50,037 nt of DNA, taken from assembly GCA_031423995.1 (NCBI GenBank), contig JANPGO010000007.1:1-50037 (forward strand). Reading direction: 5' to 3'. The stretch comes from Candidatus Altimarinota bacterium (GTDB taxonomy: Bacteria; Patescibacteriota; Gracilibacteria; BD1-5; UBA2023). The number at the start of each line of letters is the position of its first letter. Position 1 is the first letter of the stretch. The position numbers were made by a program, and so were the translations under genes. Positions 12,210-48,121 of the stretch are shown here, piece by piece. The notes under the pieces were generated by a model. It did no database searches. It was given only the letters and a program-made list of their open reading frames with translations, and was not told where the DNA came from.

Positions 12210-12226
12210 AGGAGTGAAGTGAGGAA

Positions 12227-23169: not shown

Positions 23170-23547
23170 ATGGCTCAAGTGATTCGCAATGATTTTACCT
23201 TTACCATTTTGGATGAGATCCAGGCAAAGTATCCAGAACTCGTCGATCTTGTTCTCGGCAGTGAGTCGATAGACAACAATGAGAAACAATACTGGTTCGA
23301 TATCATGCCTTCTATGACAGATGAGCAGGTAGATAGGCTCTTCAATATTCTCATGACTGAGCGCCGTCAACTCGAGGAGCTCAATATCAAGTATCAGGAA
23401 GAGATTAAAACGCTCAATGAGAAACACCTCATCCAGTGGCAGAGTCTCCAATCCCAAAAGGCAAAAGAAAAAGTGCAAGAAGCGGAAAAATCTGATCGTT
23501 CAAAACAAGATGCAGATGATGCACTTGGACTCCTTCAGAGTATATAA
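23170..23547 (+). CDS. Small coiled-coil protein of unknown function (125 aa)
   Basis: ATG 23170 opens MAQVIRNDFTF... The protein contains YWFDIMPSMTDEQVDRLFNILMTERRQLEELN. It is divergent from murF. Confidence 0.6.
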   Translation: MAQVIRNDFTFTILDEIQAKYPELVDLVLGSESIDNNEKQYWFDIMPSMTDEQVDRLFNILMTERRQLEELNIKYQEEIKTLNEKHLIQWQSLQSQKAKEKVQEAEKSDRSKQDADDALGLLQSI

Positions 23548-23620: not shown

Positions 23621-25546
23621 ATGAGTTCTCACTATTCTTTCGACATCATACGGCACAAGAATCCAGAGAGTAAGGTTCTCATCAGATCACATGTTCTCCA
23701 TCCGCATAGTGATATCACAATCATCTGTATTATCAGTGCTGAAAGAGAAAATGTTGTGAGCGTCCTCGAAGACCATCTTCTCGAATCAGTCTCATCTACG
23801 GGTTGGAATGAGGGTGAAGAAAATGCTGACTTTTCATACGTCACTGAAAAATACAATCATTTTCTTGGAAATCTTGCACAATCAGACCTCATAGGAACAG
23901 GAGCACTTTTTGCAACACTTATTCGAGACAGTCTCATGGTCTCCACACTCTGATGAATGTGTGCAATCCTCTGTGAGAAGGATGGTGAGATCAGCATCGT
24001 TGCAGAGGAGCGAGATGAAGAAAAAGAATTTCAATCGATCTCGACAGGAACCATCCCTCACAAAGGAAATGTTTTCTTCTGTTCAAAGCCACTCAATGCA
24101 TTTCTGGGCGATGACTTCTTCGATGAATGCAGTCATATGAAAAGTGAGGTTTTTCGTGAAACGATCGAAGGACTTTTGATACGCGATCATCGAGATAGCC
24201 TCGATATCATACGCATTCTTCAGGAACATACCTCTCCTGAAAAGTGAACCTCACATATTACCCGATCAAGAAAAGTGAATCATCAGATCGATATTGCCCG
24301 ATGATACTTATTTGATATTTTTGAATCGCTTCTCCACAACCGAAAAATTGAGGTATTTTTCGAACGTATTCGTGTCTTCCTTGGAACAAAAAATAGTCAG
24401 ATACTTATATTTTTTCTCATTACTGGGGCGATTCTCTTTTTTCTCCTAATATCGGTACTTATCAAAGCGCTTTTTCAGGTGTCTAATAGTCCTCAAGTTG
24501 ATATAAAAAATCAGATTCTTGAAGCGCAGAATCTGATTGAACAGAGTCAAAAACTGACTTCAAACTCAGAAGCTTTCAATCAGAACATTCATACCGCTGA
24601 GAATATCCTCTTCAAGATTCGTGATAAGCAAGAGTACATGAAAGATACTCAAGAACTTCTTCAGAGAATCGAAGCAATGAAGAAAGAGATGTATGATATT
24701 CAGACTATTGATCTCAAGAAACGGACAAGCATATTGAAGTTTAACCCCCTTGATATATCACCCATTTGAATCTTTGAAATGGGTAATAAGTTGAATCTTA
24801 TAGGGAAAAATTCGGCAATTTTCGGATATATTCAGTGAAGTACTGTTCCGAATGCATCACCATATCCACCATGAGAAGAGGCTATAAGTGTTGATGTTAC
24901 TGACGATGGGAATTTTTACTTTCTCACAAAAAATAAACGAGTTCTCTCAACTAAGAGAAACGAGGTAACGTATGTCAGTGTCACTGGACAAGATTCATGG
25001 GAAAATGCAGAAAAAGTGAAAACATTTAATAATAATATTTATCTCGTTGATTCTGACTGATGACAGGTCTACAAGCATAAGCCTGGGGTGAACTGATTTT
25101 CTCAGAAAACTCCTGTACTTTCACGAACACTTTCTTGAATACTCGATATCGGAATCGACGGATGATTCTATGTTGTGACTGATGAACCTCGCATCTATCG
25201 AATGATTACAAAGGATGGATTCTCTCAGAGTGGCATCACTTTGAATAAAGTCCCCGGTGAGTATTCACTTGGGAATGAAGTTGCTTGAACTTCTTTGATT
25301 GTGAGACCGAATTTGAACTTTATCTACATTCTGAGCAAAGACAGAATATGGATATTTGAACCAGATTCTAAGCGGTTCCAAGATGTTCGATCATGGACAT
25401 ATGTAGCACAACTAGAGATATCAAGTGATGAGAATATTCGAAGTATCAGTATCCCTCGTGATGGACTTATCTATATAGTAACCAATCTCTGAGTTTACAG
25501 TATCCCATTTGATTTTATTGATAGAAATATAATTTTGAAAAATTAA
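23621..25546 (+). CDS. Single-pass membrane protein, 641 aa, function unknown
   Basis: Track ORFs 23621, 23957, 24479 and 25295 share one frame and are joined only by TGA codons (walked by hand). TM helix ILIFFLITGAILFFLLISVLIKALF near 24410-24480. C-terminal half is beta-rich. TAA at 25544-25546. Confidence 0.65.
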
Positions 25547-25547
25547 T

Positions 25548-26162
25548 ATGTTTCGTACTGAAGCTGTCATACTTTCTATACAGAGGATCCGAGATCATCA
25601 GACACGTATTATCATATTTTCGAAGGAGTATTGAAAGATATCCTGTTGGTACAAAAAAAATCTCACTGCTGATATCGGAAATATTGTACTGATAATTGTT
25701 GAGAGAAAATGAAGGGAGAATCATATTGAGTCTATTGAGCTCAAATCTTCAATTACAGGACAATTACAAAACTACTGAGAAGTACATCACTTTCTCGAAG
25801 TACTTCATTCACTCTATCAGTTTCTTCCTGAAGGCGAAGAGCAAAAGGATCTCTATAGTGATATTTCGAATTCTATATTGAATTTCTCATATCATGGAAT
25901 TAAAGAAAATCCTTTGAAGGAAATCAATTGAGTATGCAAAAGACAACTTTTCCTACTCATCCATATCCGAATCCTCAAACAACTTGGATTCTTGAATCAG
26001 TGACTCTTTGGAGGATCAGAAATACTGAACTACATCTATCACTATATCGAGAAGAAAACTCTAAAAGAGATTTTTGAGGGAAAAGTATTGGAGGCCGATC
26101 TTCTCGAAAGATTAACATCTATTATTCAGGAAACACTGTATAGATTTGAATACTCAACCTAG
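25548..26162 (+). CDS. recO: RecO-like DNA repair protein
   Basis: N-terminus MFRTEAVILSIQRIRDHQTRIIIFSKEY-G-KISCWYKK matches the RecO OB-fold start. The length (204 aa) and the C-terminal helical part fit RecO. Frame walked to TAG 26160-26162. Assignment by eye only. Confidence 0.5.
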
Positions 26163-26237: not shown

Positions 26238-27212
26238 ATGACTCTTTCCACTGTTCTCATTTTTGTTACGATTATTTTTATACTTGGTACACTCTTTTGA
26301 AGTTTCTCAACTGTGCTTATAGAACGCTGGAAATATGGAAAATCAGGTATTGTGGCAGGAAGAAGCGAGTGTCCACTCTGTCACCATACACTCTCTGCAT
26401 GAGAATTGATACCTCTCTTTTCTTATATATTTCAATGAGGAAAATGTCGAGGATGCAAGAAGCATATATCATTCTGGTACCCTCTTACAGAGGTATTTTT
26501 CTGAATAATATTTCTTGTAATGTCATACATAAGTATATCGATGCACAATGAACTTATAAGCATAGCTACTCTTATCCTTCTCATACTCTGATTCATTACA
26601 GGAGTCTATATGCTCTATGATATTCGCTATACTGAAATTCCTGATCAGATACTTGTGCCTTGAATAGTATGATATAGTATACTTATCATACTATGATATT
26701 ATCTCTCCCCAGTTCGTTCCTATTTATTTTGAATTAATACGTATCAGAGTTATTCGGCTTTCATGATCGACCATTTTCGATGAGCAGTTCTCATATATTG
26801 ATTTTTCTATCTGCAGATTCTCATTCCAGGATGATGGCATCTCTTGAGGAAATGAAACATTCGAGCCTTTATAGAACTTCTTCTTTCATTTTTTGTGTTC
26901 CCATTTGAACTCATTCTTTCAATGTTTTTTAAAAAGAAGGATACTCCCTGAGAGTCTGGGGAAGACATTCCAGCATGGATAGGTTGAGGTGATTTGCGTG
27001 TAGCGCTCTTTATTGGACTCACCCTCTGAACTATTCATACACTGAGCACCTTATTTTTCGCCTATATAACAGGATCGATAGTATGAGTCGCTCTTATAAT
27101 TCAAAAAAGGAAATGATGAAATTCTCACATTGCATTCGGTCCATTTCTCTGAATAGGATGGATGATCTCTATGCTCTTATATATCAGTATTCTCAACTTT
27201 ATTTCCCTATAG
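26238..27212 (+). CDS. pilD: Prepilin (type IV leader) peptidase, A24 family
   Basis: Zinc-ribbon-like CPLCHHTL..GKCRGCKK in the N-terminal part, then WYPLTE. Two aspartate motifs: YDIRYTEIPD and G-TGA-GDLRVALFIGL. FGPFL near the C-terminus. About 8 hydrophobic segments. Frame walked by hand (22 TGA codons) to TAG 27210-27212. Confidence 0.85.
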
Positions 27213-27380
27213 ATTCTGTTTAGTAGAATATTGTTTAATAACACTATTCTACAATAACGTCAATTGTTTTTTCCTTTCAGGATCAGTTTTTTCTCGACAG
27301 ATAGAAAAAGAATTATATAATCAGCATCAAATCTTCCTTCGTAGGAGCGAATTTTTTCTATACATAATCTCGAAATACAC

Positions 27381-27905
27381 ATGGACGAACAAAAAATCAA
27401 GGCTCTTAGAGACCTTATCCATTCAGCACAAAACTCAATTCACTCAGCAAAAAAGATTCTCAACGCACTTCTTGGAGATGATGAAGACGATCTTTGACTC
27501 GATACTTCTGGACTCATGAACTATACTTCATGAGATGATCGCGTGGTAGAATGAGTATTCACGGGTGAATCCATGCTTGGATCTGATGGGAATATGTATC
27601 CAGTACCTCAGAACTACGCGTCAAAATCGCTTCTCGTCCAATGAAGCAAGCTTAAAGCGCTGATTCATCCGAATGGAAAAATCGTCTATAAAATTATTTG
27701 AGAGATTCCCTTTGAAACACTGGTGGGAATTATTACAAAAAATGGGGAGAAATATCAAATCGTTACAGATGCAAAAGCCTATAGTGTCCTACTTGCCGCA
27801 ATCACATTCCATCACTGTTCCGTTGGGGATACAGTGAGTATTCGAATTCCCGAAGGAAAAGATGCAACTTATGCTGTTATAGAGACAGTTATACCGAAAA
27901 AATAG
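27381..27905 (+). CDS. Conserved hypothetical protein (174 aa)
   Basis: Frame walked from ATG 27381 to TAG. Contains EGVFTGESMLGSDGNMYPVPQNYASKSLLVQG..LKALIHPNG. From memory this looks like an uncharacterised CPR protein family. Confidence 0.7.
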
Positions 27906-27937
27906 TCCAGATTTTATTCTCAACTTATCAATAGCCT

Positions 27938-29338
27938 ATGCGTTCCACCACTCATACTCGGAGTAGTAGAAGTGAATCTCCATTTTCATGGAATTGGCTC
28001 ATTGTTGTATGAATTATTGCTGGTATTTTCGGTCTAAATTGGCTTTTTTGATGATCATCATGAGGAAGTGTTGACAAGAGCAACTGACTTCTCGTTATCC
28101 CTGGATCCGGAAGTGAAGTCTATATCAAGCAGGCTCACGGTTCATCAAAACAAATTGAGTGAGAAGAGTCACTCTATACTACTGATGAATCCCTTTCGAT
28201 TATAAATGGCTTTGCTGAAATTCGTTCATCATTTTTGAACGGATTTCTCGATAAGTCATCTGAGCTTACCTACCTAGAACACCGAAATGACGGCGAAAAA
28301 ATTGATTTTATTCGAGGGAGGCTCTGGATTGAATCACATGGAAATACTTCCATTCAGATGAAAAACCTCGAAGCAACAGCCAAAAATGGCGACGTTATTA
28401 TGGTGGAACAACCAAATCAGATATTCAGTACACTCTATGTATTGAAGGGCAATATTTCTATTACAGCTGGTGGTGGAAATAGTTATACGCTGACTCCTGG
28501 TCGAAAAATTATGATATCAAAATCAGATCTTGCGAACCCTGGAACAACCCTTGATATGCTCAGTGGCCCAATAGATGATACTTTGAAGCAGAATCCACTT
28601 TTTATTCTTAGAAATGGTGGGACACTCCTTTCCGTTTGAACAGGCACTATGAGCCTCACTGGAAGAGTACTCAGTAGTACAGGTTCACTTTCTGGAAGCA
28701 TGATTCAAAATACATGAGGCAAATTTATAGAAATTACATCCCCTCTGGATGAATCCATTATAGCAACACAGACGCTTGAGGTTGTAGGGAAAATACTCTC
28801 AAAGGAAGTGAAACGAGTCACACTCAACGATATTGATGCAATCGTGAGTCCAGTTGACGCATCATTCTCACTCAGAGGAATGACACTCAATGGAGAGACA
28901 TTGAATCTTGTTTATAAGGCATATTCGAAAGATGCTACTCTCCTCGAAAAATGAGTTCTCACTCTCTATCCGAAAAATCATCAAACCTGAGCAGATAAGC
29001 TCACTCCAACGAATTTCCCGGTAAATGATAAAGATTATAAAATCACAAGTCCTCTCGAGAACCCTTATAGTACCACAGATGCAAATACTACTGTTCGCGG
29101 TATTGTTCCCAAGAATACTATACAGTATATCACGGTAAATAATTTCCGACTTAAGAAATTCATCCCGAATTCAACATCATGGTATTATTTTGCAAATATC
29201 AGTAATGACACACTCAAAGAAGGTATCAATCTCTACGAGATCGATTTCTATGGTCAAAATGATACTCTCCTCTATAAAAAACTCTTTACTATCGTGAAAG
29301 AGAAGAAATCTACAATATCTGGTGAGAATCCATTATAG
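27938..29338 (+). CDS. Membrane-anchored protein with a FecR-like beta-sandwich region (466 aa)
   Basis: ATG 27938. TM anchor WNWLIVVGIIAGIFGLNWLF. A segment with FecR-like alternation: FIRGRLWIESHG..VIMVEQPN..YVLKGNISITAGGG..LTPGRKIMIS. Frame walked to TAG 29336-29338. Confidence 0.65.
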
Positions 29339-29395
29339 AAATTACACAACCACCCTCGCTCTTATACTCTCTCAGCAAAAGAAGATACTTTCCCT

Positions 29396-30043
29396 ATGAA
29401 GAAAATTTGATTCATGCAATTCATCCGTTCCATTACAGGTTCAACCATGATTGAGCTTATGGCAGTACTTGCCATCATGGGTATGGGAATAGCATGACTT
29501 CTTGAAACGATATGATCTGGTATTTATTTTGCGAAGGATACAGAAAACAATATTAAAGCAATTAATCTTGCTCGTGAATGAATAGAGTGAGTTATCAATA
29601 TCCGAGATACCAATTGGCTACGATTCTCGGGTGATAGAGTGAACTGTTGGCGAACCAAGGATTATAATGGATGATGCATCAACGATAGTTCCTTTGTTTG
29701 ACTCATTGCCTCTGGATCATATACAATTTTTACTCGAAATGGGGCCTGGGTTCTCTCTGGAGCAACACAGATTGATCCGACTGCTAACTGGAATGGATAT
29801 GCAAATATGTACATGGTAGGTCTTGACAGTGGAGGATTTTTTACTCAGACAGGGGTAACCACAACACAATGATGTAGTAATCAAACACAGACTGGATGCT
29901 TAACTGTTTTCGCTCGTGAGATTTCTTTGACCGTAATCGGAACTGGTACAATGAACGTCAAAAGCATCATTCGATGGCAAGAGCGACGTCCGATGAGTGT
30001 GATTCTTGATACGACACTCACGAATTGGAAATCTAATTTCTAA
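29396..30043 (+). CDS. Prepilin-type N-terminal cleavage/methylation protein (minor-pilin/pseudopilin-like)
   Basis: Class III signal: ...RSITG|STMIELMAVLAIMGMGIAG, with Glu at +5 and a hydrophobic helix. 215 aa. TAA at 30041-30043. An alternative start is ATG 29414. Confidence 0.75.
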
Positions 30044-30077
30044 TATTTGCCAAGAAGAAACATATATGATATGCTTG

Positions 30078-30108
30078 ATCGGAATTACAAATATAAATTC
30101 CGATTTTT
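30078..30108 (+). terminator. AT-rich hairpin plus T-run directly before the next start codon (weak terminator or attenuator)
   Basis: atcggaatt (30078-30086) pairs with aattccgat (30096-30104). A tttt run follows, then ATG 30109. Confidence 0.4.
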
Positions 30109-31572
30109 ATGTCTTTCTCTCTTGGATGGCTCAGTCGTGGCATCATGTTCATATGGTTTTGTAACTGTATCATAGGAGCAGGCATAGCTGTACATGAAGT
30201 ATGGATTCCTTATATGAATGCTGGAAACGACTCATATACAAAGATTCAAAGTGATCCTTTTGATGGAACTGTCATGCCTATTGCGTATATCCCAGATTGG
30301 ACAAAATCAGAAAACCAAGATAAATCAAAGCGTTTTGAAGATATCAATATTAGCGAGTATATTCCTATACCCCAATATGATCCGATTGCACTCCTCGATA
30401 CCAAGAACTCAACAAAAGCTTCGACTATTCTTCACTATACGTATTTCACACCATATATGTGAAGCTATCGATTGAATTATAAGGAATTCGATGGAAGTCA
30501 TAATGCAATAGATATCAGAGTTCCCATTGGTACACCGGTACTCTCGATTGCAAATGGAATAGTGGTAAAAACTATTGAGGCTGATGGCTCTGGAGATAGA
30601 TTTATCGTCATTCGACATGATGGAGTCAATTTAGAAGGAAAAGTTCAGTCATTGTATTCATGCTACCTTCACCTTTCTGAGATCCTCATCCAAGAAGGAA
30701 CAAAGGTACGAAAAGGTGATATGATTGGTCGTACTGGCATGAGTGGTATCGCGACCACTCCACACCTTCATATACAGATAGATACAGCTGATGCTCCATT
30801 TCACCCATACTGGCCATTTACTTCTAGTGATTCTCGAGCCGCATGACTCGGGTTCTATGACTCAATCAATGCATGACTCGGAAAAGAAAATGCACTCAAA
30901 TATTCGATCAATCCAATGAGTTTTATAAATATGTATCTGGGTGGAACGACAGTTCCAACATTCTCAACTGCTCCAGTCACACAGTGAACAGAGGTAGTGA
31001 CCGATCAAGGAACTAAAACCATTGCATCCTATGTATCTGAGAATGATCCGTGTACCAAGAAACGGTACAATGATGTGGGAGAGACAAGTACTCTAGGGAA
31101 GATGCTCTACCCACTCGTTGATAAAAAGTGTCTTTTTCAAAAAACTGATCAGAGTTTCTCAAGCAAATGATATATTAGTCAGCGAGAAGCTATTACTAAT
31201 CTTATGAAGTTCTATGGTATAGTTCCTTCGAATGGAACGAGTCACTTTCTTGATATTCCTATCGGTGATGTCTTCCAAGGATATGCTCTTGTAGCCTATC
31301 GTCGTGGTTTGCTTGATGGGAACTATGCATATCCAGAAAAGATTCTCTCAAAATGAGAGTTTATCGAACTCCTCGTGAAAATTGCCCAGCCTGAGAAAAA
31401 TCCTTCACAGATTCGAATATATAACGATGTTGATCCGATGAATCCTCACTACAAGAGTGCTCAAGACTATTGATATATGGTCCGTGCTCGTGGTGGCAAG
31501 CTCTATACAGAGAATATCCTGACTCGCGCTAATATGGTACAGATGCTCGCAGCAATACAACAAAAAAAGTAG
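30109..31572 (+). CDS. Membrane-anchored M23 metallopeptidase with three SLH-like C-terminal repeats
   Basis: N-terminal TM (GIMFIWFCNCIIGAGIAV). M23 motifs HNAIDIRVPIGTPV, IVIRHDG, YCHLSEI, GMSGIATTPHLHIQID. Then three ~55-aa units of the type Y/F-x-D-(V/I)........G..........(S/T)(K/R).E....L. Frame walked to TAG 31570-31572. Confidence 0.8.
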
Positions 31573-31620
31573 ATTTTTCTCGAGAAATCTATACAGTACA
31601 GGCATTCTCAATTTTCTACT

Positions 31621-33024
31621 ATGGCAACAAAAAAGATACTCTTCTTCGTCCTAGCAGGTATACTCGGACTTGGTTTGATTTTTTCACTCTGGAAAATCAC
31701 TCACACTGAGCAATCAACTCAGTCTGGATCAACAGGATCACTCTCAATATGGATTGTCGGTGATACAACGATAGGATATGATACGCTCATTGAAGGATTT
31801 CGAACATATGCTCCAGAGTACAAGAAGACTACAATAGAATTCCGAAAATTTAGTGACTATGCATCCTATCAAAAGATTCTTCTGAGCACCCTTGCAGATG
31901 GAAAAGGTCCAGATATATTCATGGTAGACGCTGGTGCTGATGCCCTGCTTCAGAGTAAAGTAGAACCAATTCCAACATCACTGTTGCATATTTCCGACTT
32001 TGACAAACGATTTGAGGACCTTTTTCTCACTCTTATTGAGAGTTCTGGAACGACAGATGCTACGAATTCTTTTCTTCGTTGAGTTCCACTGTGATATGAA
32101 GCACTCGGAATGTTTTACAATAAATCTCTCCTCACACAGATTCCAAAAACCTGGAATGAAGTCAGTATGCTCTATACCGTGAATCCGACTGCTAATGTTT
32201 TCCCAACAAATATTGGTATGACTTCTCGGTATACACCTTATAGCCTTGATATCCTTTGACTTTTCTTGGTACAATCGTGAATCAGGGAATATAATATGCT
32301 TGATAAAGCTGAGAATACTTATGAGAATTTCTCTTCATTTGCAACGACTCCAATTCCATATACCAATTCAGAAGACTCAGGAATTCAGGATCAGTCTGGT
32401 TCATTCCAGTCTCTCTGGGATATGCAAAATTCGCTTTCTGAGAAAAAACTCACAACGATTGACCTCTTTATGCGATGAAAAATAGCATTTATTGTGGGAT
32501 ACCCGAGCCTCATACATGAGCTCGAGGACGCCAAGAAACGTGCATGAATTGAAGGAATAAAAAGTATCATTCTCACGGAAAAAATTCCTCAGTCATCATT
32601 CTCACAAAATTCTGTGAATCTGGCACGATATTCTTACTTTGGTATATCAAAATCTTCACAAAATGGGTCACTTTGAGTAAAATTCCTCGACTACCTTTTG
32701 ACAGAAGATGCGGAAAGAAGGTTCTTAAGTTCATTCCCAAACTATATTCCTGCACAGAGAAGTTTTTATGAAACTTCGAAATCAGTGTCTCTCTCAACTA
32801 TATTCTCTCGTGCTAAACTAGATAGTTTTATCCCTTGACCGTGAGAAGAACTACAGCTCTTTGATTATGGAAATAAAATCGAATTTGAAAAAATTCTCAC
32901 AGATAATATTGACAGAAATGGAAAAATAGATAAAGATAATATATCAAAAGTAGTAATATCCCAGATCTGATGTGAGGTACACTCTATCTCGGGTGATGGT
33001 CAAAAAGATGGTTGTGTAGAATAA
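31621..33024 (+). CDS. Extracellular solute-binding-protein-like protein (ABC SBP family 1-like), signal-anchored
   Basis: Signal anchor MATKKILFFVLAGILGLGLIF. SLSIWIVGDT, YAPEYKKTTIEFRKFSDYASYQKILLSTLADGKGPDIFMVDAG and GVPLGYEALGMFYNKSLL are typical of sugar-type SBPs. No permease or ATPase genes are adjacent. TAA at 33022-33024. Confidence 0.65.
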
Positions 33025-33092
33025 AGAAGAAAGTTGCATGTTTCTCTATCTTCTGCTACAATAATTTCGTTACTTTCGTTTATTCGTGAATT

Positions 33093-33521
33093 ATGATACT
33101 CTCTCCACGTCAAAAAAATATTATCATCCTCTTCTTTTCAAGTTTTTCACTGATTTCAGAAAAAACATTTGCCCTTTGTAGTGGTTGGTTCAACTTTGGT
33201 GATTGTGAGTTCAAAATACCTGTTGGATGCGAATCTAAAGACTGTCTCAAAGATTGAGTTGGTATTATTGGAAGAGTAATGAAAGGACTGACAAATAAGC
33301 CACTCTCAGAGTATGCCCAGGATGTGGTTCTGTATTTTCTCAGTTTTATCTCAATCATTGCCGTCATCTACATTATCTATGCTGGATTTCAGATACTCAT
33401 CGGTGGTGGCGATGAAGAGAAGATGAAAAAAGCAAAAAATATCATTCTTTATGTCATCGTGGGAATTATCGTCATGTGGCTTGCGTATGCTATAGTTGAG
33501 TGGATTATGAAGCTTCTCTAA
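33093..33521 (+). CDS. Small two-TM protein resembling TrbC/VirB2-type (conjugative or T4SS) pilins
   Basis: 142 aa. N-terminal leader and a Cys-rich stretch. Then two hydrophobic helices (VVLYFLSFISIIAVIYIIYAGFQILIGGG and IILYVIVGIIVMWLAYAIVEWI) separated by DEEKMKKAKN. That layout matches VirB2/TrbC-like pilins. Confidence 0.55.
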
Positions 33522-33578
33522 TTTTGGACTTCCATCATAAACTCCTTTTTTCAAAAAATTTCCGACACCGTATCACTT

Positions 33579-36500
33579 ATGCTCCACAAGAATCGATTCA
33601 TTTCCATCATTACCCTCCTTCTCGTACTTTCTACGAATATTCTCCCTTCGTTCCTTTCTGGATGAGGAACAACTTTTGCATATACTGAGAGTACAAAAAA
33701 TACCTTCATTGAGTATCAGAAACAGCTCACATCCATTAAGGAAGATATAGAGGCTGACTTCCGAAAGAATGGGACAGCAAGTTCGAGTATGCTCCAGAAT
33801 GCGAAAAATATTGTACAAAGTGCCTATGATCGACTTCCTGATACTCTTGATTTCTCAACTGAGAATGCAACGGCAAAAAAATGAACCGATCTCGCTATTG
33901 ATCTTGCATTGAAGAATCCGACATCACAAACCTATGTTAGCAATGCCGTCTCTGCTGTAGAAAAATTCTCAAATGAAGCAAAGATTCTGAAAATTGCCTG
34001 ATCTATCAATGCCAATCCAGTAAGTGGAAATGCCCCACTCTCAATATCATTTCTTGCTGCGAGTGTGAAAGATCCATCAGGAGTAAATCCTGACCCAAAT
34101 AATTATATTTGGTGGGTTCGGGATAATGGTGGCTATAGAAGAGAGATCGGTCGTTGACCAACTCTCAACTATTCTTTCAATAAAGAATGAAGTTATCAGG
34201 TATTTCTCGATGTTATTTCTGGAAGTAGGAATAGTAAATGATACACTGATGTCCTTCCCCTCTCAACCTCACAGGATATCCAGGTGCTCCCACGATTGGG
34301 GGAAATAGTGCTCCTCATCAATGGAGTGAATGTGAGTACACTCTCATCCCTTAAAATTAGTCCGGCACTTGGAAAGATCGGAATTATTTTTGATGCTACC
34401 GCATCACGAGCTATCAGTAATGGTACAATCAAGAAAACGAAGTGGGATTTTGGAAATGGAAATACCATTGAGTACAAATGATCTCCCGTAATTGAAAGAC
34501 AGCTGTATGTCAATCAAGGAGCCTATCAGGCTTCTCTCGAGCTCGAAACGAATGAAGGAACAACATTCAAAAAAGATTTTCAACTCATCGTTATTGATCC
34601 AACTGCTACTATATCAACTGATAAAACGAATGGCTTTGTCGGTGATGACTTCCAAATGAAGGCGATGACTTACTTTACGAATACTCGAAATGTCGAATAT
34701 ACCTGGACGGTTCAATGAGCAAATATGAACGACCTTCATCCTGTGGTACAAATCGGGCAAAACTTTTCATATAAATTTCCAAATGTATGAGACTATATTG
34801 TGACCCTCATATCAAAAAGTCCAAATGGAACAGAAGATAGAGACAGTAAAACAATCACCATTGATTCTCATGAGCCAGTCGTAAATGTAGAGAATCCAAA
34901 AAATATTTCCCCAGAGAAACCAAATATTTTTATCTTCGATGCATCTCGATCAATAGATCCTGATACGAATAGTACAAAAGATTTAACGTATAAATGGACT
35001 ATCGATGGAAATGATGTGGCTCTCGATAATCAGGAGAAAGATGGAGCGATAGGGAAATATATGTTCAATGAGAAATGAACCCATACATTTGCTGTAACTG
35101 TTATCAATAGTCATGGGAAGTCAAAAACCGTTGAAAAATCATTAGACGTAATTTCCACACTTTCAGTCAATGTGAATATTGTCCCCAGAGCCGCTCCTAT
35201 TGGAACACTTGTGAGTTTCCAAGCGATTTCTCCGCGAGCCGCCTTCTATGAATGGAATCCTGGTGACGGAACACCCACTATCAATGGTCAAATGAGTAGT
35301 ATCGACCACGTCTATAAAAAAACGGGGATATATTCAGCAACATTGAATGTAAAAAGTGCTGACGGAACAGAGTCTAATGCAATAGAAAGAAAGGTCTACG
35401 TCACTGATGCGAATAATCCATTTGCACTCATAGAGGTCAGTAACGCATCGAATAGCGTTCTTGAAGATTCGACTGCCTGTGGTGCTTATGGGTGAGCTTT
35501 TCTCGTGAATCGCTCAGAGTGAACAACTATAGATGGGTCAAACTCAGTCAATATTGATGGGTCAAATTGAAGCCTTACCTATACATGGAAGTATCTCGAT
35601 CGAGTCAAGACTGGACCTACTCTTTCTGAGAAATTCACCGAACTCGGATGTTTTCCTGTCGAACTAACAGTGAAGAGTATGCAGAATGGAGCATCTCACA
35701 TAAGTAAACGCTATATACAGATAAAAAATATTCCCCCAAAACTCACTTCTATATCAACAAAGATTGATCAAAATAAAAAAGACAGTCAAAAAATACTGAT
35801 CAATGTGACTGCCGATGGTGCACGCGATGAAGATGGAGTGATCACTTCATATATTTGGTATTATAAAACTGAAAGTGATGCTGAACCCCAGAATATCAAA
35901 ATTACCCAATCTCCAACCACGACATTTATCGTACCAAATATCACTGAGAAATACACGTTCTGAGTGATTCTCGAAGATAATGATGGAGCTAAAGTACGGT
36001 CAGAAGATCTGATCAAGGATCAGTCCCCACTTCTGGTTTCCAACGATAATGGAAATATCAATATGCCTCTTATTGGTCTCTCAGTACCAAAGACACAGGT
36101 TCTTGCAGGAGAAACTGTGAACTTTGTTGTCACAGCAAAGACCATAGTAGGTACAGATATTACGAGTAAAAGTGAATATCAATGGGACTTCGATGGTGAT
36201 GGAAAGATTGATCGAAAAACTACTGAAGCACGAACGAGCTTTGTCTATCCAAATTCATGAACTTTTGCTGCAAAGGTAAAGGTTACCTACAATGGAACGA
36301 GTAATACAAAGTATCAAAATATTGTCGTAAAGAACGAGCTAAAAGCTCAAGCACATGGATATAAAAGTGGTGATACCATCTACCTCATCAATACAAGTAG
36401 TGGTATCTATGATAGTGCATTTTGGCAGGTAGGTGATATACAATCAGACTCTCTTTATGGCATTGCTGTACCGGCATCTGGAATCTTTGGTTCATGAGGA

Positions 36501-38591
36501 TCAAAAAAATCACTCACAGTCAATGCATGAGGAAACGAGACTTCAACGATTGATATCTCACCTGCAAATATTCAAGAGATAGAAAGTACACTTTCTTGAG
36601 GAATATTTGTACAGTCTTTTCCTCAAATATCCAATGCTGAAATCCATGTTCACACTCGAGGAGACAAGATCTTGCTTTGAATGTTCGGGAATACATGAGC
36701 AACACAATATACTATCGATACCAATACGAAAATTGATTCCGACACCAATGGAACTCCAGATGATGATATAGACAATAAGGACTTCCCTTCCTATAAGGAT
36801 GGGTCCATTTACAGCTTCAATACATCAGATATGAAGTTGCATCGACAAACACTTCGTCTCGCTGTGATGAAAAATACCACGGTACTCTGAAGCCAACAAA
36901 TTGATATCATCGCTGACTTTATTTCTGATATTACTCCAGAAACTACGAATCTACTTACAGATTCTGGATCTGAATCATTTTCTCAAAAAGAGAAAGAGAA
37001 TCTCGAGAAATTTCAGGCTAAAATACGGACTATTCAGTCTGATGAAAGAATTATTCTCACTCAAGACTACAATTCTCTTATCGAGAGCTGGGATGATACT
37101 CTCGAGCGAACAAAGAAACTTATCGATATCCAAGAAGAAATCAATGGAAGTGCATGAGTCACAGATACCGACAAAAAAGAACTCTCAGGTATTATCGACA
37201 GTATTCTCGTGGGAGATGCAAATGCAACGGATGAAGTCACTGTAGCAACCCGTGTTATTGAGAGCCTTGTATCGTCGACCAATCCAAACCACAACACTAT
37301 AATAGAGAAGCTTGAATCAATCAAGTCACATCCGAACAATCTCAAGGAAAATAAGACCCTCGGTTCAGAGATACTAGCCCTAATAAAAGATGATACATCC
37401 CTTGAAGATAAATATAAACTTCTCATCCGGAGTCAGCTCCAGATAATCTTGAATGGATGACAAGAAAGTATCTCATCATGACTCGTTGTTTCAGGAGAAC
37501 AACCTAGAGGAACAAGTTGATTTTGGTGATTCATCACTGGAACAGTCAAAGTATTCGGGATTATTATTATTGTTATAATCATCATTATTCTTATTGGATT
37601 TATCCTGTATCGATTTTCACGGAAAAATAACGATATTGGTTTCCAAGACTTTCTCATCGACTCAATATTTCATACAAGAAATTCCAAGTGACCATCTTCT
37701 TCAGGTGATTGAATATTTGCGAAGAAAGAAATATTTGCGAAGGTAGATCCTCTTGCCACAGCAATTCAGGAAAGTATACCAAGTATTGTAATACCAAGTA
37801 GTAGCCCCGTAGAGGATCCAATGACAAAATTTTCCCAAATGTCTGTTCAGGAAGTGACAAAAGATGAAATCCTGGTAAAAACACCAATTCAGGAAGAGGT
37901 TGCAAGTATTCCCGACTGGCTCAAGCCAAAAAATGATGCTCACACAGAAACTCTTCCACCTATTTTTTCTGAAACACCAATTTCTACTGACAATACACTT
38001 CCTACCAATTCGGATGACACTATATTCTCATGAGAAAATAACTTACTCCCATCTGAAACCTTTCCTATACCAGAAGCATCTCTTCCCCCTGAATTCATCG
38101 CCGATACTGAAGCACCTCTTCCTTGAGATATTCACTCCAATAAAGAAGAAGATCCAAATCTTCCAGATTGGCTCAAAGGGATGAGCGCTGATGACGATAT
38201 CATTCCGCTAAATGCTCTCAGTGATACAAATAGTACAGAATGAGTTGTTGACATGAATATCTCTCCTGAAAGTCCTGAGGAGATTCCAGCTACTCCTCGC
38301 ACTCAAGAAGAATTGATTCCTTTCGAATGAACTTCACTGAAAACACCAGAAACGGTAACAAATAGTGAAGCTCTTCCTGATTGGCTCATAGATTCGGTCA
38401 CACCTACAAGTCAACAAGAGACAGTGAAAAATAGTGAAAAATTTTCGAGTGAGAAATCTCAAAAGTGAGAAAAAACTCCAAAAAATAAGAAGCCAAAAAA
38501 AGAAATACAGACTGGAAGCAAAAAAGACCTTTCTCATCAACCACAAGATACAGTATCTCAGAGTACTGATCTTCCAGACTGGCTCAAATAA
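33579..38591 (+). CDS. Giant type-I membrane protein, 1670 aa: signal peptide, ~8 PKD/Ig-like domains, helical region, TM helix, disordered tail with 4 PDWL motifs
   Basis: Frame walked from ATG 33579 to TAA 38589-38591. Track ORFs 34284, 34800, 35172, 35670, 35964, 37209 and 37821 are all in this frame and are joined only by TGA codons. PKD hallmarks: WDFGNG, YTWTV, YKWTIDG, YEWNPGDG, YTWKY, YIWYY, YQWDFDGDG. Asp-rich DSDTNGTPDDDIDNKD. TM helix at 37551-37610. Confidence 0.85.
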
Positions 38592-38596
38592 TTTCT

Positions 38597-38629
38597 CTCC
38601 CAAATCAAAGAATTTGGGAGGTTTTTTTT
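38597..38629 (+). terminator. Rho-independent terminator
   Basis: ctcccaaat (38597-38605) pairs with atttgggag (38612-38620), followed by gtttttttt. Confidence 0.75.
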
Positions 38630-38677
38630 GACGAGAAGGGAGAAACCCTATATACTGAACACAATTAATCTTTTCGT

Positions 38678-41002
38678 ATGGAAGAACTCGATTCAAAAAA
38701 GGAAGAAACTCCACATACTCCATCTCCAGGCTCTCTCATTGAGGAGATTTTGAAAGTGCAAAAATGACAAACTTCCGAGTCATCTAGCGAAGAGATAGGT
38801 GGAAGTCAGGAATCCTCATCTCCGCAAACGAACCCTCCACCAGAAATAAAGAAACCTCGTGAACCAATTTCACCGGGAATGTTCCTAAAGTTTATTGGGA
38901 CAATACTCTTTATTTCAATCATATTCTTCGGAAGTTTTCTTACCTATATTGTCTTCAATCCGGACCAAGCTACCTTCTTTATCAATATCTTTGGAATTAA
39001 TCCGAGTGATATTGCGAGCCTTCTGAAGAAGCTCATCAATGGAAGTTTCTGAATTGTTATCTTCATTCTCTCAATCCTCTGGTTTGTATCACTCTTTCGA
39101 GCTATCTGGACAAAGAAAGATCTCAAGAGAAAAAAACTCCTTGCATGGCTCACGGCAGGTCTTATTGGGATTATTCTCTTTTCCATCCTCGCTTTTTGGG
39201 CATACCTCTTCTCACGGATTGATCTTATTCCATTCGATAATCTGAAGGGATCAATTCTTGTCTACGACAATGATCTCTACACTCATGCGGAAACAAAAGA
39301 GTATGCACTGCTCGGTGAGGGATCCAACATATTCTGACCTATCACCCTCATGTTCAATCTCAAATGGAATGCCTCTATGATTGAGAAAACACAATGAGTG
39401 ATGATCAAAAGCTTCAGGATCGATACTGATGGAGGAGCCTGCAATGATGGTACATCTGTCGTCATGTGAAGCAATGTTCTTGATGAGAAGAGTATCGTTT
39501 GTACATTTGATGCCGTCAAGACATACAATATCAATGGTGAATATACCGTCGTCACACGAACTGGGGAGGAACAGAAACTTCCGATGAATATCAGTCCCGT
39601 CGAGATACGATGACTTGTAAAAATCACTCGATCAAAAAATATTCAAGGAAATCATATCATGTCACTGGATGCTGGTAGCCTCAAACGGCTGGGGAATCCA
39701 CGTTGGATATTTCTCCAATCAAATAAAGTCGAAGAAAAATCAAGTATCACACAAACTATCTCCAATATCCCTCAATACGTCTGCCTCAGACTCCTTACAG
39801 ATAACTGTGACCGAGAGTTTATTCTTGAAGATAAAGATATCAGGGAAGTACAGTGATCAATTACGAGTAACCAGGATACCATTGATCCCCTACTCTTTCA
39901 TCTCTGACTCTCAGGATCGAGTATAGATCCGAATCAGATTACCAATATCGAATGGCTCCTTATTGATCACCAGTGATCTGAAGCGGTCATCTGTACAAAA
40001 TGATGAGATACTTGTGATTTTCGATTTGGCTCATATGGCATTGCCAATATTCAGGCACGGATCGAGATGGCAAACCATGATAAATATACCCTCCAAACTG
40101 AGATCAGTGTTCGTGAACCACTTCAGCTCTCGAGAAATATGCGAATACTCGATGAGAATTGAGTCCTCCTCAATACCGTTGATACATATAAAAGTGATCT
40201 GAAAGCTTTTGTGATAGAAAATACGCTCACACCTCCTGCCAATCTCACCCTCGATGCTCGAGATGTAAGATCAAACAATGAAGGATATGTACTTGAGTCA
40301 GTTGTTTGGAAAATAGTGAATATCAAAAAAACGGAAGAAAAGCGATGAGATAAAATTTCTATAAGTCTGTTGGAGCCACTCCGTTATACTATTACAGGAA
40401 TGTATACATTCAAACGAACGAGTGGGAATGAGAGAGAAACAGCAATGGATAGTGTGATCATAGATATTGAGAGAAAAAGTCTTATGCCACGTCTCAAAGT
40501 GACATCAAGTTCGGATTATGTGCCCTCAATGATTACCGTTGATGCATCAGAATCAGAATCAGATAAATGAGAGATTAAGAAATTTATTTTTGACTTCTGA
40601 GATGGAAAGATGCCAGCTGAATGAGATTCGATTCAACAATATGAATATGTCACTCCGGGTCAGAAGATTATCAAGCTCACGATCATTGCTGAAAATGGTG
40701 ATCGGGCAGAGATGAAGAAAATTATTGTTCTCAAGGATGAAGCCAAAAAAATAAACTTTTCCCCAAGTATGACACCAGGGATTGCAAATACGGTAATCGA
40801 CTTCGAAGCACAATGAACGAATGGACAGATAGAAGACTATATTTGGAACTTCTGAGATGATACGCCACTCTTGCATTGATACAATGCAATCCATACATAT
40901 ACGAAGGAATGAACATACCTTATCGAACTAACAATCATCTATAGTGATGGAACCCGTCGATCCGACAAGAAAAAATATGAAGTAAGTAGTGCTCCTCAGT
41001 AG
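38678..41002 (+). CDS. Polytopic membrane protein (3 TM) with a large beta-rich ectodomain ending in two PKD-like domains, 774 aa
   Basis: ATG 38678. TM segments FLKFIGTILFISIIFFGSFLTYIVF, IVIFILSILWFVSLF and LLAWLTAGLIGIILFSILAFWAYLF. PKD-like FIFDFGDGKMPAEG..YEYVTPGQKIIKLTI and YIWNFGDDTPLLHGYNAIHTYTKEGTYLIELTI. Track ORFs 39659 and 40370 are in frame. TAG at 41000-41002. Confidence 0.75.
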
Positions 41003-41119
41003 AGGAAATATCCTAGAATAAAGGTTCGGGGATAGTAAAGAGTATTTCTCTTGTGAAATAGGTAAAACTGCATACATTCAGAGTAATTCTCTGCATATAT
41101 TTTATAATAATTATTGAAT

Positions 41120-42574
41120 ATGAAAAAGACTCTCCTGTACTTGTCCTGTATTATTATTGGATTGCTTTCCACTCGAAGTGTTTTTGCAGTCGATACAGCA
41201 ACAACGACATGAGATTCTATCGGCATATACATAGGAAATATCGATAAAAAAGTTGAAAAAATGACAACTCCTGATAAAAAAGAATACTATAAAGTAATAA
41301 TAACTAAACTCGAGGATCGGATCAATCAGTATAAAAAAATCCAGGATATGCTTCAGTGAAGAATAAAAAGTATTGATTCATTCCCTATCTGAACAATCAC
41401 AGGGAGCGTTATTGATACTACGAATTGGGCAACATCACTCCAGTTTCAGGCAAAAGAATGTACAATATCTCTCTGAGCCACAGCATGTTTCTCTCCTCTT
41501 TTTGTCAGTGCTCCAAGTGGAAAGCACTTTACAGTAAGAAATATAACAAGAAATATAGTATCCAATGACCTTATTAATCCTTCAAATTATAAGACTGTGC
41601 TCGGTTGGACGAATCCAATATACTCAGTCACGAATTCAAGTTTTGATAACCCTGCCAATTTGCTCCAGTTTGGGGAAAATAAGCTGGATCTCATGGATGG
41701 TGACCGTGTTGTCACGAGTACTATTTCGGTTGCGACATGCGCTTCTGGAGGAACATGGAATGGAAAAAATTGCGTATCTACAACAACGAGTGAACTGAAT
41801 CCAACAGATCCACAAGTTTGATCTGTATGAGCATCGGGCATTATTCCTCCTGTAAAAATCACATGATCAGATTGTAGCATTCCGAAAGGTGAGAGTACAT
41901 GTTTGACATATATTTATGTATATGGTCCGCCTTGAAAAGACTATACTGTAGTTAACCTTACGCGAAATATCACAACTCAAATAATTCCAGACCAAAACAG
42001 TACCTCCCTTGTCATACAAAAGTATATCCTTAATTCAAGTTCTGACGGAGATGTTGCTAATAAACTAAAATACGGTGAAAATAATATAATCATACGCGAT
42101 GCAGCTTGAAATGGGATAGTAAAAGGGCTATATCGATGATCATGTGAGACTGGATTAGTATGGAATGGGAAGGTCTGTGAATGAGTACAGTTTAAACTTC
42201 TCAGCTACATAACAAAACAAGGCGAGAAAACCTATACTGATTGAGCAGTAATTCAATATAACCCATCTCTTGATTGATATCTGACACTCCGTGGAACTGG
42301 ACCAATCGGAAATGTGCAAATACAAAATTCAAAATCTATAACTTCAACTTATGGAGGGGTGATGAGAGCAACAAATACAGCATGAACATGGCAACTTTGG
42401 AATATTAATACGGATGAATTTATCACCAATGGAACGAATTCATATACTATCTGGGATGGGAAAGATATATCATCAAAGATCGAAATCCAAATTCAAGGTA
42501 TTACCAATCAAGTAATCCAGCCTCCAGTAACATGAGGAGGACGAAGTGGATGATTCCAGAAGAATCTCGAATAA
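41120..42574 (+). CDS. Secreted protein with an internally duplicated ~110-aa domain (484 aa)
   Basis: Signal peptide MKKTLLYLSCIIIGLLSTRSVFA. Two related domains end in TCASGGTWNGKNCV and SCETGLVWNGKVCE. Frame checked against track ORF 41597. TAA at 42572-42574. Confidence 0.7.
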
Positions 42575-42590
42575 TGGAGGAGTATTGAAT

Positions 42591-42630
42591 AGAAAAACTC
42601 TGGATTGCTTCAGAGTTTTTCTATTTTTTT
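42591..42630. terminator. Bidirectional rho-independent terminator between convergent genes
   Basis: Perfect 12-bp stem agaaaaactctg (42591-42602) / cagagtttttct (42611-42622), followed by attttttt. The pyrH stop codon (42621-42623) lies in the 3' arm. Confidence 0.65.
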
Positions 42631-43340
42631 GCATGAACAAATGTACCGATAATATCTTCGGAGCATATCTGATCGATATCTTCGATATGACAGACATAGA
42701 TGGGCATCCCTTCATCATGGGCAAGCGCGATCGCCGCTTGATCCATGACTCGGATATCGCGTTGGATGACTTCATGAAGATGGAGGGTATCATGCCTCAC
42801 TGCATCTGGATATTTCTTTGGATCTTTGTCATAGATCCCATCGACCTTCGTTGCCTTCACAACGACATCACAGGAAAGCTCAAGTGCACGCAGAACCGCA
42901 CACGAATCGGTCGAAAAATACGGATTCCCTGTACCTCAGACACAAATAGCCACTCTTCCCTGCTCAATATGCCTCAGTGCTCGTCTGCGGATGAATTCCT
43001 CAGCTACGCGTTGGGTCGGGATTGCACTCATCACCCGTACATCAACTCATTCATCCTCAATCGCCTCACCGATCGCGAGACCATTGATGATCGTTCCCAT
43101 CATTCCCATATAGTCTCCTGTAACACGGTCAAATCCACCAGCCTCAAGTTCTATTCCACGAAAAATATTTCCTCATCATACAACGATCACGATCTCAAGT
43201 TTCTCGACCTGAACGAGGTGTACGATTTTTTTCGCAAGAAAAGAAAGGAACTTCGGATCGATCCCATATCACTGTTCTCACTGAAGCGCTTCACCAGAAA
43301 GTTTGAGAAGGATTCGTTTCGGGGTATGGTATTTTTTCAT
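42621..43340 (-). CDS. pyrH: UMP kinase
   Basis: [59 protein letters not shown] 43338-43340, TAG 42621-42623. Confidence 0.9.
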
Positions 43341-43349
43341 AAGAAGGGC

Positions 43350-43952
43350 TTAGAAGTGAAATCCTCGAGTAAAGAGAAAGAAAACAAAGGAAAATGCGAG
43401 TACGAGAATAAAAAGGATAGTAAGTCCAAGAATCATGGAATTACGCTTGATAATCTCCTTTTCGAGAGAAGTAACTGTATCTATGAGTCACTTGGTGTCC
43501 TCATCACTTTTGGACTTGGCACTCTCGAGGAGATAGGTCGCTTTCTTGTAGTCCATGAGGGGGATCGAGTTCTGGAGTTCGGTTTCTGTCTTTCCAAGAC
43601 GGTAGGAGAGATCTTGAATAATCTCATCTTTTCTCGATATCACAGCCTGTGCCTCTTCATATATACGAGAAAACTCAGCTATTGCTTGTACGGAATATTC
43701 TTTGGGGACAATATTGTGACTTCGTTCCTCATTCTCAGTACGGTAGTCTTCCTTATCAAGGATTACAATATAGTCATCCTCACGTCGTGCAGGGTCCATG
43801 AGACGAAGTGACTCAATATCTGTATCTTCGAGATACATTTTTTTGCCTATTCTCCGGGTACGAATGCGCCCAGCCTGAATATGACGATCTACCGTTCGAG
43901 TAGAGACTGAGAGGCGACGAGCCGCCTCAACACGATCAATCGCAAAAGACAT
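43350..43952 (-). CDS. Excisionase/MerR-type HTH protein with a C-terminal TM anchor (200 aa)
   Basis: N-terminus AIDRVEAARRLSVSTRTVDRHIQAGRIRTRRIGKKMYL, then a coiled region, then after one TGA the hydrophobic tail MILGLTILFILVLAFSFVFFLF. TAA at 43350-43352, 9 nt upstream of the pyrH start. Confidence 0.7.
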
Positions 43953-47667: not shown

Positions 47668-48121
47668 TGGTGGAGATGGCGGGAACTGCCCCCGCGTGTA
47701 AGAAGGTACCGACTGTGAGTCTCCTATCTAGAGTCTTTTTTGGATACATGTTCCCAAGCAGGAAAAAAGACAAAAAATGAGAACCGCATCGAATCATATA
47801 CGCATATTCCTATGAAGCGATGAGACCTTCAGAATACGGACTTATAATACATCTCTCCCTTATAAGTTTCAGAGAAAAATGGTTGTAGCAGGCCATACGG
47901 CACTCAGTCTCGATAGAAAGGCTACACCCTTGAGCGATTAGGCAACAAGAGTTGAATTTGCTGGAGTGAATTTTGCTACTGTTGCGCGAGCAAGAGAAGT
48001 GAGTCCACCGAAGCGAGCTGATGTGTTTGCATCTGTGATTTCCCCTTTGATAACGAGGCGAGGCGCCCCGAGATAGCACACAGCAAGTACGAGTCTCCTT
48101 ATCGAATACTATATCATCCCC
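47668..48121 (-). ncRNA. ssrA: tmRNA (SsrA)
   Basis: The 5' end GGGGAUG pairs with the 3' end CAUCUCC, followed by ACCA, and the pairing includes a G3:U wobble. GUAUUCGAU element near the 5' end. T arm GCGGG/CCCGC. Internal tag frame GCA AAC ... GUU GCC UAA at 47938-48030. Track ORFs 47588-47797 and 47810-48079 are spurious. Confidence 0.8.

Follow-up and report, generated by a model that had tools for sequence, protein, structure and literature searches.

The complete 50,037-bp contig JANPGO010000007.1 of a Candidatus Altimarinota bacterium (assembly GCA_031423995.1; G+C content 41.6%; hereafter the window) carries a same-strand run of genes for envelope proteins. These include a prepilin peptidase (g01), a protein with a VirB2-like hairpin of two transmembrane (TM) helices (g07) and a 1670-amino acid (aa) giant with PKD domains (g08). 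Our results suggest, with somewhat more confidence than doubt, that this run is a Gracilibacteria-specific envelope cluster in which two units lie side by side, that neither unit makes up a pilus or secretion machine of its own, and that the second unit (block B, g05-g09) is an adhesive surface complex. Functions were read from domains, topology and synteny. An initial annotation of positions 26238-42574 had proposed one dedicated eleven-gene appendage module. Under genetic code 25 all its gene coordinates were reproduced, ten genes being counted rather than eleven, and the intergenic gaps of 32-168 bp were confirmed. The single module did not hold, because an inversion splits the run, g10 is an orphan and g02 is cytoplasmic. 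The genes do lie on the same (+) strand, as claimed, but the co-directional run starts at 23170 and has 13 genes (u08b, u09 and u10 precede g01), and the boundaries of the claimed locus were arbitrary.

We propose that block B builds a membrane-anchored adhesive surface complex centred on the g07/g08 giant. The g07 hairpin would be a membrane anchor or oligomerisation base instead of a fibre subunit, and g09 a second membrane-anchored immunoglobulin (Ig)/PKD rod of the complex. The wall enzyme g05 would open the cell's own peptidoglycan mesh for the large ectodomains, or attack the wall of a partner; g06 would be a transporter-less ligand-binding receptor; and the tail motifs of g08 would be docking sites for a protein of the cytoplasm. 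Block A (u09, u10 and g01-g04) contains the housekeeping prepilin peptidase next to g04, a putative substrate that would work with type IV pilus machinery whose genes lie at other loci. As initially noted, the machinery itself is missing from view: profile searches (Pfam and NCBIfam) found no PilB, PilT, PilC, VirB4, VirB11, secretin or coupling protein in the 50-kb contig, and the relatives' neighbourhood listings (±10 kb) likewise contain no secretin, no platform and no ATPase of a pilus or secretion system. It was also correct that the layout is unlike the canonical operons of type IV pili, type II secretion systems, Tad or type IV secretion systems (T4SS).

With TGA as a stop codon (table 11), the region falls apart into small open reading frames (ORFs). 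When TAA and TAG were the only stops, the coverage by six-frame ORFs of at least 150 codons rose from 17.7 kb to 132 kb. Two TGA codons of the valyl-tRNA synthetase (ValRS) gene in the window (positions 101 and 166) align with glycines of T. thermophilus ValRS (1gax), and the conserved GGGD motif of g01 also contains a TGA. Hence, the region uses genetic code 25, with TGA as glycine, and tryptophan is ruled out. The nearest database relatives carry the annotation Candidatus Gracilibacteria or "Altimarinota". Public protein entries for Gracilibacteria (P0001, P0121, P0123) have often been translated with table 4; reading each TGA as Trp cuts the apparent identity by 2-4% and plants false Trp in family consensus sequences. 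In the structure and representative searches, the near-identical database proteins P0001 and P0123 and a TGA-free g07 fragment stood in for the products of the window.

The g07/g08 giant protein

The product of g07 (33093-33521) consists of a signal peptide, a Cys-containing mini-ectodomain and the VirB2-like hairpin, with TM helices at residues 78-96 and 117-135. It matched PF18895 (T4SS_pilin) with 42.3 bits (cut-off 26.6) and PF04956 (TrbC) with 24 bits (under the cut-off of 27.9); its leader is an ordinary signal peptide with no prepilin motif. The first description of g07 as a small VirB2/TrbC-like pilin therefore stands as to the domain, which scores over the PF18895 cut-off, but in nine relatives the hairpin is the membrane hairpin of a PKD giant. 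In the window g07 and g08 (33579-38591) share the frame, with one TAA and 57 nt between them. At the DNA level a single stop-free ORF spans g07 and g08 in L003, L011, L012, the L014 group and L020, and fused gene calls with both PF18895 and PKD were found in L022 (1784 aa), L024 (1768 aa), L025 (1769 aa) and JGI 3300059473 (1750 aa), so that g07/g08 is one protein in these nine sampled relatives. A fused/split ratio from protein lengths was discarded as unreliable, since gene calling with table 11 would end a fused gene at its first TGA, and the stop-free DNA ORFs were used instead. Split genes were observed in the window and in L001 and L002, the two relatives whose g02 is most similar to that of the window (87% and 78% identity, respectively); the stop codons and their positions differ, and each g08 has a new signal peptide. 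We conclude that: i) g07 is a fission fragment of an ancestral single chain, and ii) the split is derived in the clade of the window. The fusion in relatives and the fission in this clade are direct evidence for a joint function of g07 and g08.

The fused chain starts with a signal peptide, a short Cys-containing ectodomain, TM1, a GGGDEEKxKKAK cytoplasmic loop, TM2 and a linker. It continues with a helical domain opened by a conserved "AYTES..TF.EY" motif and with the PKD array, and ends with a C-terminal TM helix followed by a disordered cytoplasmic tail. The PKD-rich ectodomain between the two anchors measures ∼1,290 residues, and the predicted topology agrees between fused and split forms. 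In the window, g08 has its own signal peptide, a helical N-domain, PKD_4 matches (134 bits in six stretches) and a TM helix at residues 1325-1343. Its tail (residues 1343-1670; window 37605-38588) comprises 327 acidic, disordered and cytoplasmic residues. Four [LIV]PDWL motifs hold all four tryptophans of the tail, and the last motif forms the C-terminus (...PDWLK-COOH). Three to four copies of [LIV]P[DE]WL are kept in the tails of the L022, L024 and L025 orthologues, which are otherwise divergent. Among ORFs of at least 100 aa in these sequences the motif is confined to tails of g08 orthologues, and two or more copies arose in none of 20,000 shuffles. Such invariant motifs imply a cytoplasmic partner, for which g02 is possibly a candidate.

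With the TGA-free g07 fragment as query, an exhaustive search at E ≤ 1e-3 found 15,956 representative clusters, among which are further giants with hairpin plus PKD (P0263, P0328, P0330 and P0297). TrbC was matched at E ≤ 1e-5 in the fused L025 orthologue. We also observed single proteins with 3-11 tandem VirB2-like hairpins, e.g., P0240 (1147 aa) and P0191 (820 aa), which represent either genuine poly-pilin chains or products of read-through in pilin gene arrays of the kind reported in Patescibacteria. These tandem-hairpin relatives reach 263.6 bits with PF18895, over 11 stretches, and 144.6 bits with TrbC/VirB2; it is the latter score, in chains of 8-11 hairpins, that secures the family-level link to VirB2. 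When the hairpin family profile was compared with the PDB, it matched no solved VirB2/TraA pilin, only spurious GPCR helix pairs.

These matches raise the possibility that block B belongs to a scattered Patescibacteria T4SS as its surface or mating-pair component, with the VirB4-powered channel encoded elsewhere. The hairpin would then plug the adhesin into the channel, g05 would act as a VirB1-like wall hydrolase, and g08 and g09 would act as PrgB-like adhesins. The PF18895 score of g07 and the TrbC/VirB2 matches of the L025 orthologue and the tandem-hairpin relatives are in keeping with this. So is PMC12102498, according to which the T4SS genes of Gracilibacteria are scattered away from virB4, VirB6 is undetectable there, some VirB1 homologues bear M23 domains, and no PrgB-like adhesin has been found so far. 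However, no VirB4, T4CP, VirB3, VirB6 or VirB8 occurs within ±10 kb in the relatives' neighbourhood listings, g09 has no VirB6-like fold, and the hairpin profile fits no solved pilin of the VirB2/TraA type. Moreover, a protein held by a C-terminal TM anchor is unlikely to be extracted into a pilus. Taken together, we consider this T4SS role of block B unlikely.

The same anchor bears on the role of the hairpin in the adhesive complex that we favour. Extrusion of the hairpin into a pilus fibre is implausible because the PKD giant also has a C-terminal TM anchor. Nor is the hairpin a free-standing polymerisable subunit, being covalently part of a ∼1,750-1,780-aa protein in nine relatives. Since the giant appears to be tethered at both ends, and the hairpin is genetically separable without loss, the hairpin would be a base rather than a fibre. 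A bolder proposal, which we regard as quite unlikely, is that a domesticated VirB2-like hairpin forms the base of a transmembrane contact device, in which g02 reads the tail and host attachment is coupled to the interior of the symbiont. The hairpin would oligomerise or be engaged by scattered VirB4 machinery, and the coupling would be mechanical or by signalling; the M23 enzyme would be the wall-opening part and the receptor with a solute-binding protein (SBP)-like fold the ligand-sensing part.

Gene order in relatives and the two blocks

Relatives were collected by a scan of species-representative genomes (with one protein query), from the contexts of g02 and g09 homologues, and from metagenomes scanned with a profile of the g02 family (L004-L021). 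The species-representative scan yielded one relative, L001, which carries g01-g08 in order with 62-87% identity. The wider run from u05/u06 to g08 is collinear in L002, L003, L011 and L012, and g03-g09 are collinear in L020, L022, L024, L025 and JGI 3300059473. The order u09-u10-PilD-g02-g03-g04-M23-SBP-pilin/PKD was present in every contig of sufficient length, save for one inverted lineage, and gene order is kept in at least ten Gracilibacteria lineages. Envelope genes are thus co-conserved across Gracilibacteria, and the cluster is therefore no chance juxtaposition in one genome. Synteny in code-25 relatives, named initially as a check of the module, was found in this sense, but housekeeping genes are collinear as well, and g10 is an orphan.

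In the inverted lineage (L013-16/18), g05-g06-g07/8 are flipped to the opposite strand beside murF, and u09-u10-g01-g04 remain in place. The breakpoints lie exactly at g04|g05 and beside murF. As the inversion splits the run at g04|g05, we distinguish block A from block B. Among the genes that follow g04 in the inverted lineage, no ORF matches genes of the window, and none is pilus-like by eye. The gene directly after g04 (L015, 12888-14573, + strand) codes for a 554-aa secreted protein that looks FecR-like by eye only.

In several lineages the collinearity extends upstream to MurF, a second M23 protein (M23cc), ValRS and a sugar transferase, and downstream it resumes with pyrH and CysRS. It may hence be argued that there is no functional module, and that unrelated envelope and housekeeping genes stay collinear through the slow rearrangement of small genomes. 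In support of this, ValRS, M23cc, MurF, the RecO-like gene, pyrH and CysRS hold their relative positions, g02 is cytoplasmic, g10 was inserted without consequence, and the most distant homologue of g09 is solitary. Against it stand the fusion and fission of g07 and g08, which is direct evidence of a functional link, and inversion breakpoints that respect the block boundaries. Furthermore, the flanks vary (L012 has no ValRS match, and the L014 group neither a ValRS nor an M23cc match) and the core is intact, and the short gaps (32-117 bp) with just two terminator hairpins fit operon-like transcription. We judge mere collinearity to be quite unlikely.

Several points nevertheless weigh against a two-unit cluster with an adhesive block B: i) the collinearity of ValRS, M23cc and MurF means that the order is partly due to slow rearrangement and not to selection for a module; ii) outside the closest relative L001, g08 is 41-55% identical (ValRS ∼65%), which is moderate conservation and not hypervariability, and host-recognition adhesins are often hypervariable; iii) the block is not universal, as the most distant g09 homologue (29% identity, in L023) stands alone among housekeeping genes; iv) the anchoring of the giant at both ends is predicted from hydropathy; and v) the roles given to g05 and g06 are generic guesses.

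Genes of the two blocks and their surroundings

The prepilin peptidase g01 (26238-27212), a PilD of the A24 family, was correctly recognized at the outset. It matched A24_N_bact (PF06750) with 87 bits and Peptidase_A24 (PF01478) with 24 bits, the latter narrowly under the cut-off. The catalytic motifs are intact, and D..IPD, G[GP]GD (GxGD) and two CxxC motifs are kept in full-length orthologues. The gene g04 (29396-30043) codes for a 215-aa type IV pilin-class protein. Its G|STMIE prepilin site, noted initially, is supported by the G/A at -1 and the Glu at +5 kept in 10 of 10 orthologues; the N_methyl profile gave 16.8 bits, under its cut-off of 21.2, and a weak PilV match was seen. Against the PDB, the g04 profile gave only weak matches to the N-terminal helix of pilins (PilA/Geopilin). 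It is likely that g04 is a PilD substrate, and the sole plausible one in the cluster, since g03, g07, g08 and g09 lack a prepilin motif and instead carry a TM anchor or an ordinary signal peptide. The earlier proposal that pilin-like subunits are processed by the adjacent peptidase thus remains plausible for g04, but not for g07, which has an ordinary signal peptide.

These two genes prompt the question of whether the whole run is an accessory set of a type IV pilus, with g04, matured by PilD, as the minor pilin that primes the pilus or forms its tip and presents g03 and the PKD proteins, and PilB and PilC encoded elsewhere, much as in the appendage model first put forward. Minor-pilin sets usually have three to five genes, and only one pilin-class gene is present here. 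In addition, the inversion parts g01-g04 from g05-g08 with neither block lost; g03, g08 and g09 have membrane anchors of their own and no prepilin motif; and the leader of g07 is a normal signal peptide. On the other side, PilD and a conserved prepilin-class protein are kept together in every lineage, type IV pilus genes and their expression are reported for Gracilibacteria (PMC11452946), and Saccharibacteria need such pili for host attachment (Xie et al. 2022, as cited in PMC11452946). A pilus accessory set is, in our view, very unlikely.

The most conserved gene of the region is g02 (27381-27905), whose 174-aa cytoplasmic product has no signal peptide and no TM helix. Its identity across relatives is 64-87%, versus 64-66% for ValRS (L002, 78 and 65%; L003, 66 and 64%; L011, 69 and 66%; L001, 87% for g02), and its 290 homologues are all unannotated. 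The AlphaFold2 (AF2) model (pLDDT 81) has an N-terminal helix and two small β-barrels of OB/SH3-like type. Foldseek matched it at low TM-scores to the CSD pair of RNase R/II, to IF1 and to the coiled coil plus double OB of Mpa, and profile matches were weak (TagH_SH3-like, best E 0.0055). The absent signal peptide and TM helix and the OB/SH3-like fold ruled out g02 as a pilus part. The label 'polysaccharide export, SLBB domain', which some JGI entries carry, received no support from the model, and nothing beyond the weak TagH_SH3-like matches tied g02 to a specific known family. It may dock to the surface complex.

The 466-aa product of g03 (27938-29338) has one TM anchor (residues 15-33), followed by cupin-like and Ig-like ectodomains, which were detected as weak matches. 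Orthologues gave Glucodextran_B-like matches in 8 of 8 cases and MPI_cupin matches in 5 of 8, and no sequence relative was found in the PDB. A FecR-like identity, as first assigned, was not recovered: no FecR match was obtained with g03 or eight orthologues at E ≤ 1. Upstream of g01, u09 (23621-25546, 641 aa) encodes a cytoplasmic domain of ∼260 aa, a TM helix (261-279), a coiled coil and a β-propeller-like ectodomain, with weak profile matches (WD40-like/Tachylectin). Orthologues of u09 lie upstream of PilD in L002, L003, L007, L011, L012 and L013-16/18; the gene is always found with block A and may functionally be part of it. The gene u10 (25548-26162, 204 aa) begins 1 bp after u09; it is weakly RecO-like (RecO_N 18.3 bits, under the cut-off), and its position is conserved. 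The true start of the same-strand run is u08b (23170-23547), a code-25 ORF divergent from murF, which encodes a 125-aa coiled-coil protein with no Pfam match; a 124-125-aa gene occupies the same position in L002 and L003.

Block B begins with g05 (30109-31572), a membrane-anchored M23 endopeptidase with an SLH-like C-terminal region. The M23 profile scored 76.5 bits, the zinc/catalytic motifs H131xxxD and PHLH218 are conserved, and a single TM anchor lies at the N-terminus (helix 11-29). The anchored M23 enzyme of the first description was thereby borne out, but its SLH-like repeats were significant only in orthologues (L012, 49.6 bits; L014, 27.5 bits), with 15.5 bits in the L002 orthologue and no match in the window copy. 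The gene g06 (31621-33024) encodes a MalE-type SBP fold with an N-terminal anchor (6-24), which matched SBP_bac_8 with 51.7 bits and SBP_bac_1 with 36.9 bits. In agreement with its initial description as an orphan, no importer permease or ATPase for g06 was found in the window or in the relatives' neighbourhood listings; the two ABC genes of the window are of exporter type.

The last conserved gene of the cluster is g09 (38678-41002, 774 aa), which, like g08, had been called a PKD protein from the start. It has three TM helices and two PKD stretches (PKD_4, 76.9 bits). In the AF2 model (pLDDT 80), a disordered cytoplasmic N-terminus is followed by a three-helix membrane bundle and about six Ig/PKD β-sandwiches. 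Foldseek neighbours were generic Ig-rod adhesins and receptors, such as the GhpA grappling hook, cytokine receptors and S-layer proteins. We also considered g09 as a divergent VirB6, which was rejected, as the fold search gave Ig-rod proteins and no VirB6-like match. Full-length homologues of g09 number 68. It follows directly after g07/g08 in L020, L022, L024 and JGI 3300059473; in L025 a 160-aa gene call lies between.

Downstream of g09, g10 (41120-42574) encodes a secreted protein of 484 aa in which one region is duplicated (residues 107-215 versus 245-350, E=8e-15), as already noted in the initial annotation. Pfam and NCBIfam gave no significant match for g10, and homologue searches returned its own product and one partial match of 37% identity. 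No g10 is present between g09 and pyrH in L022, L024 and L025, where the AA_kinase gene directly after g09 is 74-79% identical to the pyrH of the window (UMP kinase; 42621-43340, - strand). Because pyrH abuts g09 in other lineages, g10 was rejected as a cluster member: it is a recent insertion of a lineage-specific orphan between g09 and the convergent pyrH, the latter being the conserved 3′ boundary of the cluster. On the - strand, 42621-43952 holds pyrH and a gene for a 200-aa protein with a helix-turn-helix and a TM segment; this stretch was overlooked by table-11 ORF calling, and both genes abut g09 in other Gracilibacteria.

Promoter-like and terminator-like sites are overall no more numerous than expected from shuffled sequence. 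The best promoter-like site (TCGACA-16-TATAAT, 11 of 12 positions; 27294-27321) is a consensus match only and lies in the 168-bp gap between g01 and g02. The two strongest terminator-like sites of the region, which had been singled out initially as the only strong ones, are a hairpin of 10 pairs followed by T8 directly after g08 (38596-38621) and an 18-pair hairpin with a T-run between the convergent g10 and pyrH (42587-42626), likely a bidirectional terminator.

Elsewhere in the window, a full-length tmRNA match (47668-48121, - strand; RF00023, 44.8 bits against a gathering score of 47, E=4e-16) lies in an ORF-poor stretch between ABC exporter genes and CysRS; it was missed by ARAGORN and by a gathering-threshold Rfam scan. 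A second surface locus (2220-13573, - strand) encodes a secreted giant of 3329 aa (2220-12209) and a secreted protein of 448 aa (12227-13573), neither with a Pfam-level identification in this analysis.

Significance and comparison with known systems

Gracilibacteria and related bacteria live as episymbionts or predators and have hardly, if at all, been brought into culture. For these organisms, u08b-g09 represents a conserved candidate host-contact gene set that is clearly bounded and divided into two sub-blocks. In surveys of Patescibacteria, at least one of the families listed as "VirB2-like T4SS pilins" would be the membrane base of a giant adhesin, and domain-based censuses of T4SS pili in genomes of the candidate phyla radiation may therefore need revisiting. 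Two testable handles are at hand: a cytoplasmic docking motif repeated three- to fourfold, and g02, which is conserved like an aminoacyl-tRNA synthetase. Table-4 entries and table-11 gene calls that truncate fusions may conceal such architectures.

VirB2-like pilins are reported in 1,948 Patescibacteria assemblies (PMC12102498). The MPF-FATA-type T4SS pilins described there resemble g07 in having a signal peptide and a two-TM-hairpin domain, and in lying away from virB4. In contrast to those free small pilins and pilin arrays, the hairpin is here the N-terminal part of a PKD protein of ∼1,750-1,780 aa; the searched text of PMC12102498 reports no adhesins and mentions no hairpin-PKD fusion. With type IV pili the cluster shares an A24 peptidase, whose catalytic and zinc motifs are intact, and a single protein that carries a canonical class-III signal (G|xTxxE) and a hydrophobic N-terminal helix. 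It differs from them in that there is only one pilin-class gene and that ATPases for assembly or retraction, a platform and alignment proteins (PilMNO) are missing.

Surface arrays of β-sandwiches are shared with giant Ig/PKD adhesins, namely those of Vampirococcus (PMC8080830), GhpA of Aureispira (9flp) and the RTX ice adhesin (4p99). Giant PKD-type membrane proteins have been proposed as host-attachment factors in the related Vampirococcus (PMC8080830). Like these contact-dependent bacteria, the lineage of the window is presumed to be episymbiotic or predatory. The TM-scores of g09 with GhpA and other Ig-rod adhesins are low and reflect generic repeat architecture only. To our knowledge, those giant adhesins are not anchored in the way proposed here, with a VirB2-like hairpin at one end and, at the other, a C-terminal TM helix that leads into a cytoplasmic tail with repeated motifs.

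The Gram-positive conjugation surface set of pCF10 (adhesins PrgA/PrgB/PrgC and wall hydrolase PrgK) offers a similar assortment: large adhesins occur together with a wall hydrolase and a small hairpin protein of the membrane, and the envelope is of monoderm type. The differences are that there is no kinship in sequence or fold to PrgB or PrgK, that the hydrolase is here an M23 enzyme and not a lytic transglycosylase/CHAP protein, and that VirB4/VirD4 are unlinked. Each of the domain types is already known singly. Relative to the literature searched, in which no description of the cluster or of a VirB2-PKD fusion was found, the new elements are the two-block gene set, the hairpin-PKD fusion, the repeated tail motif and g02.

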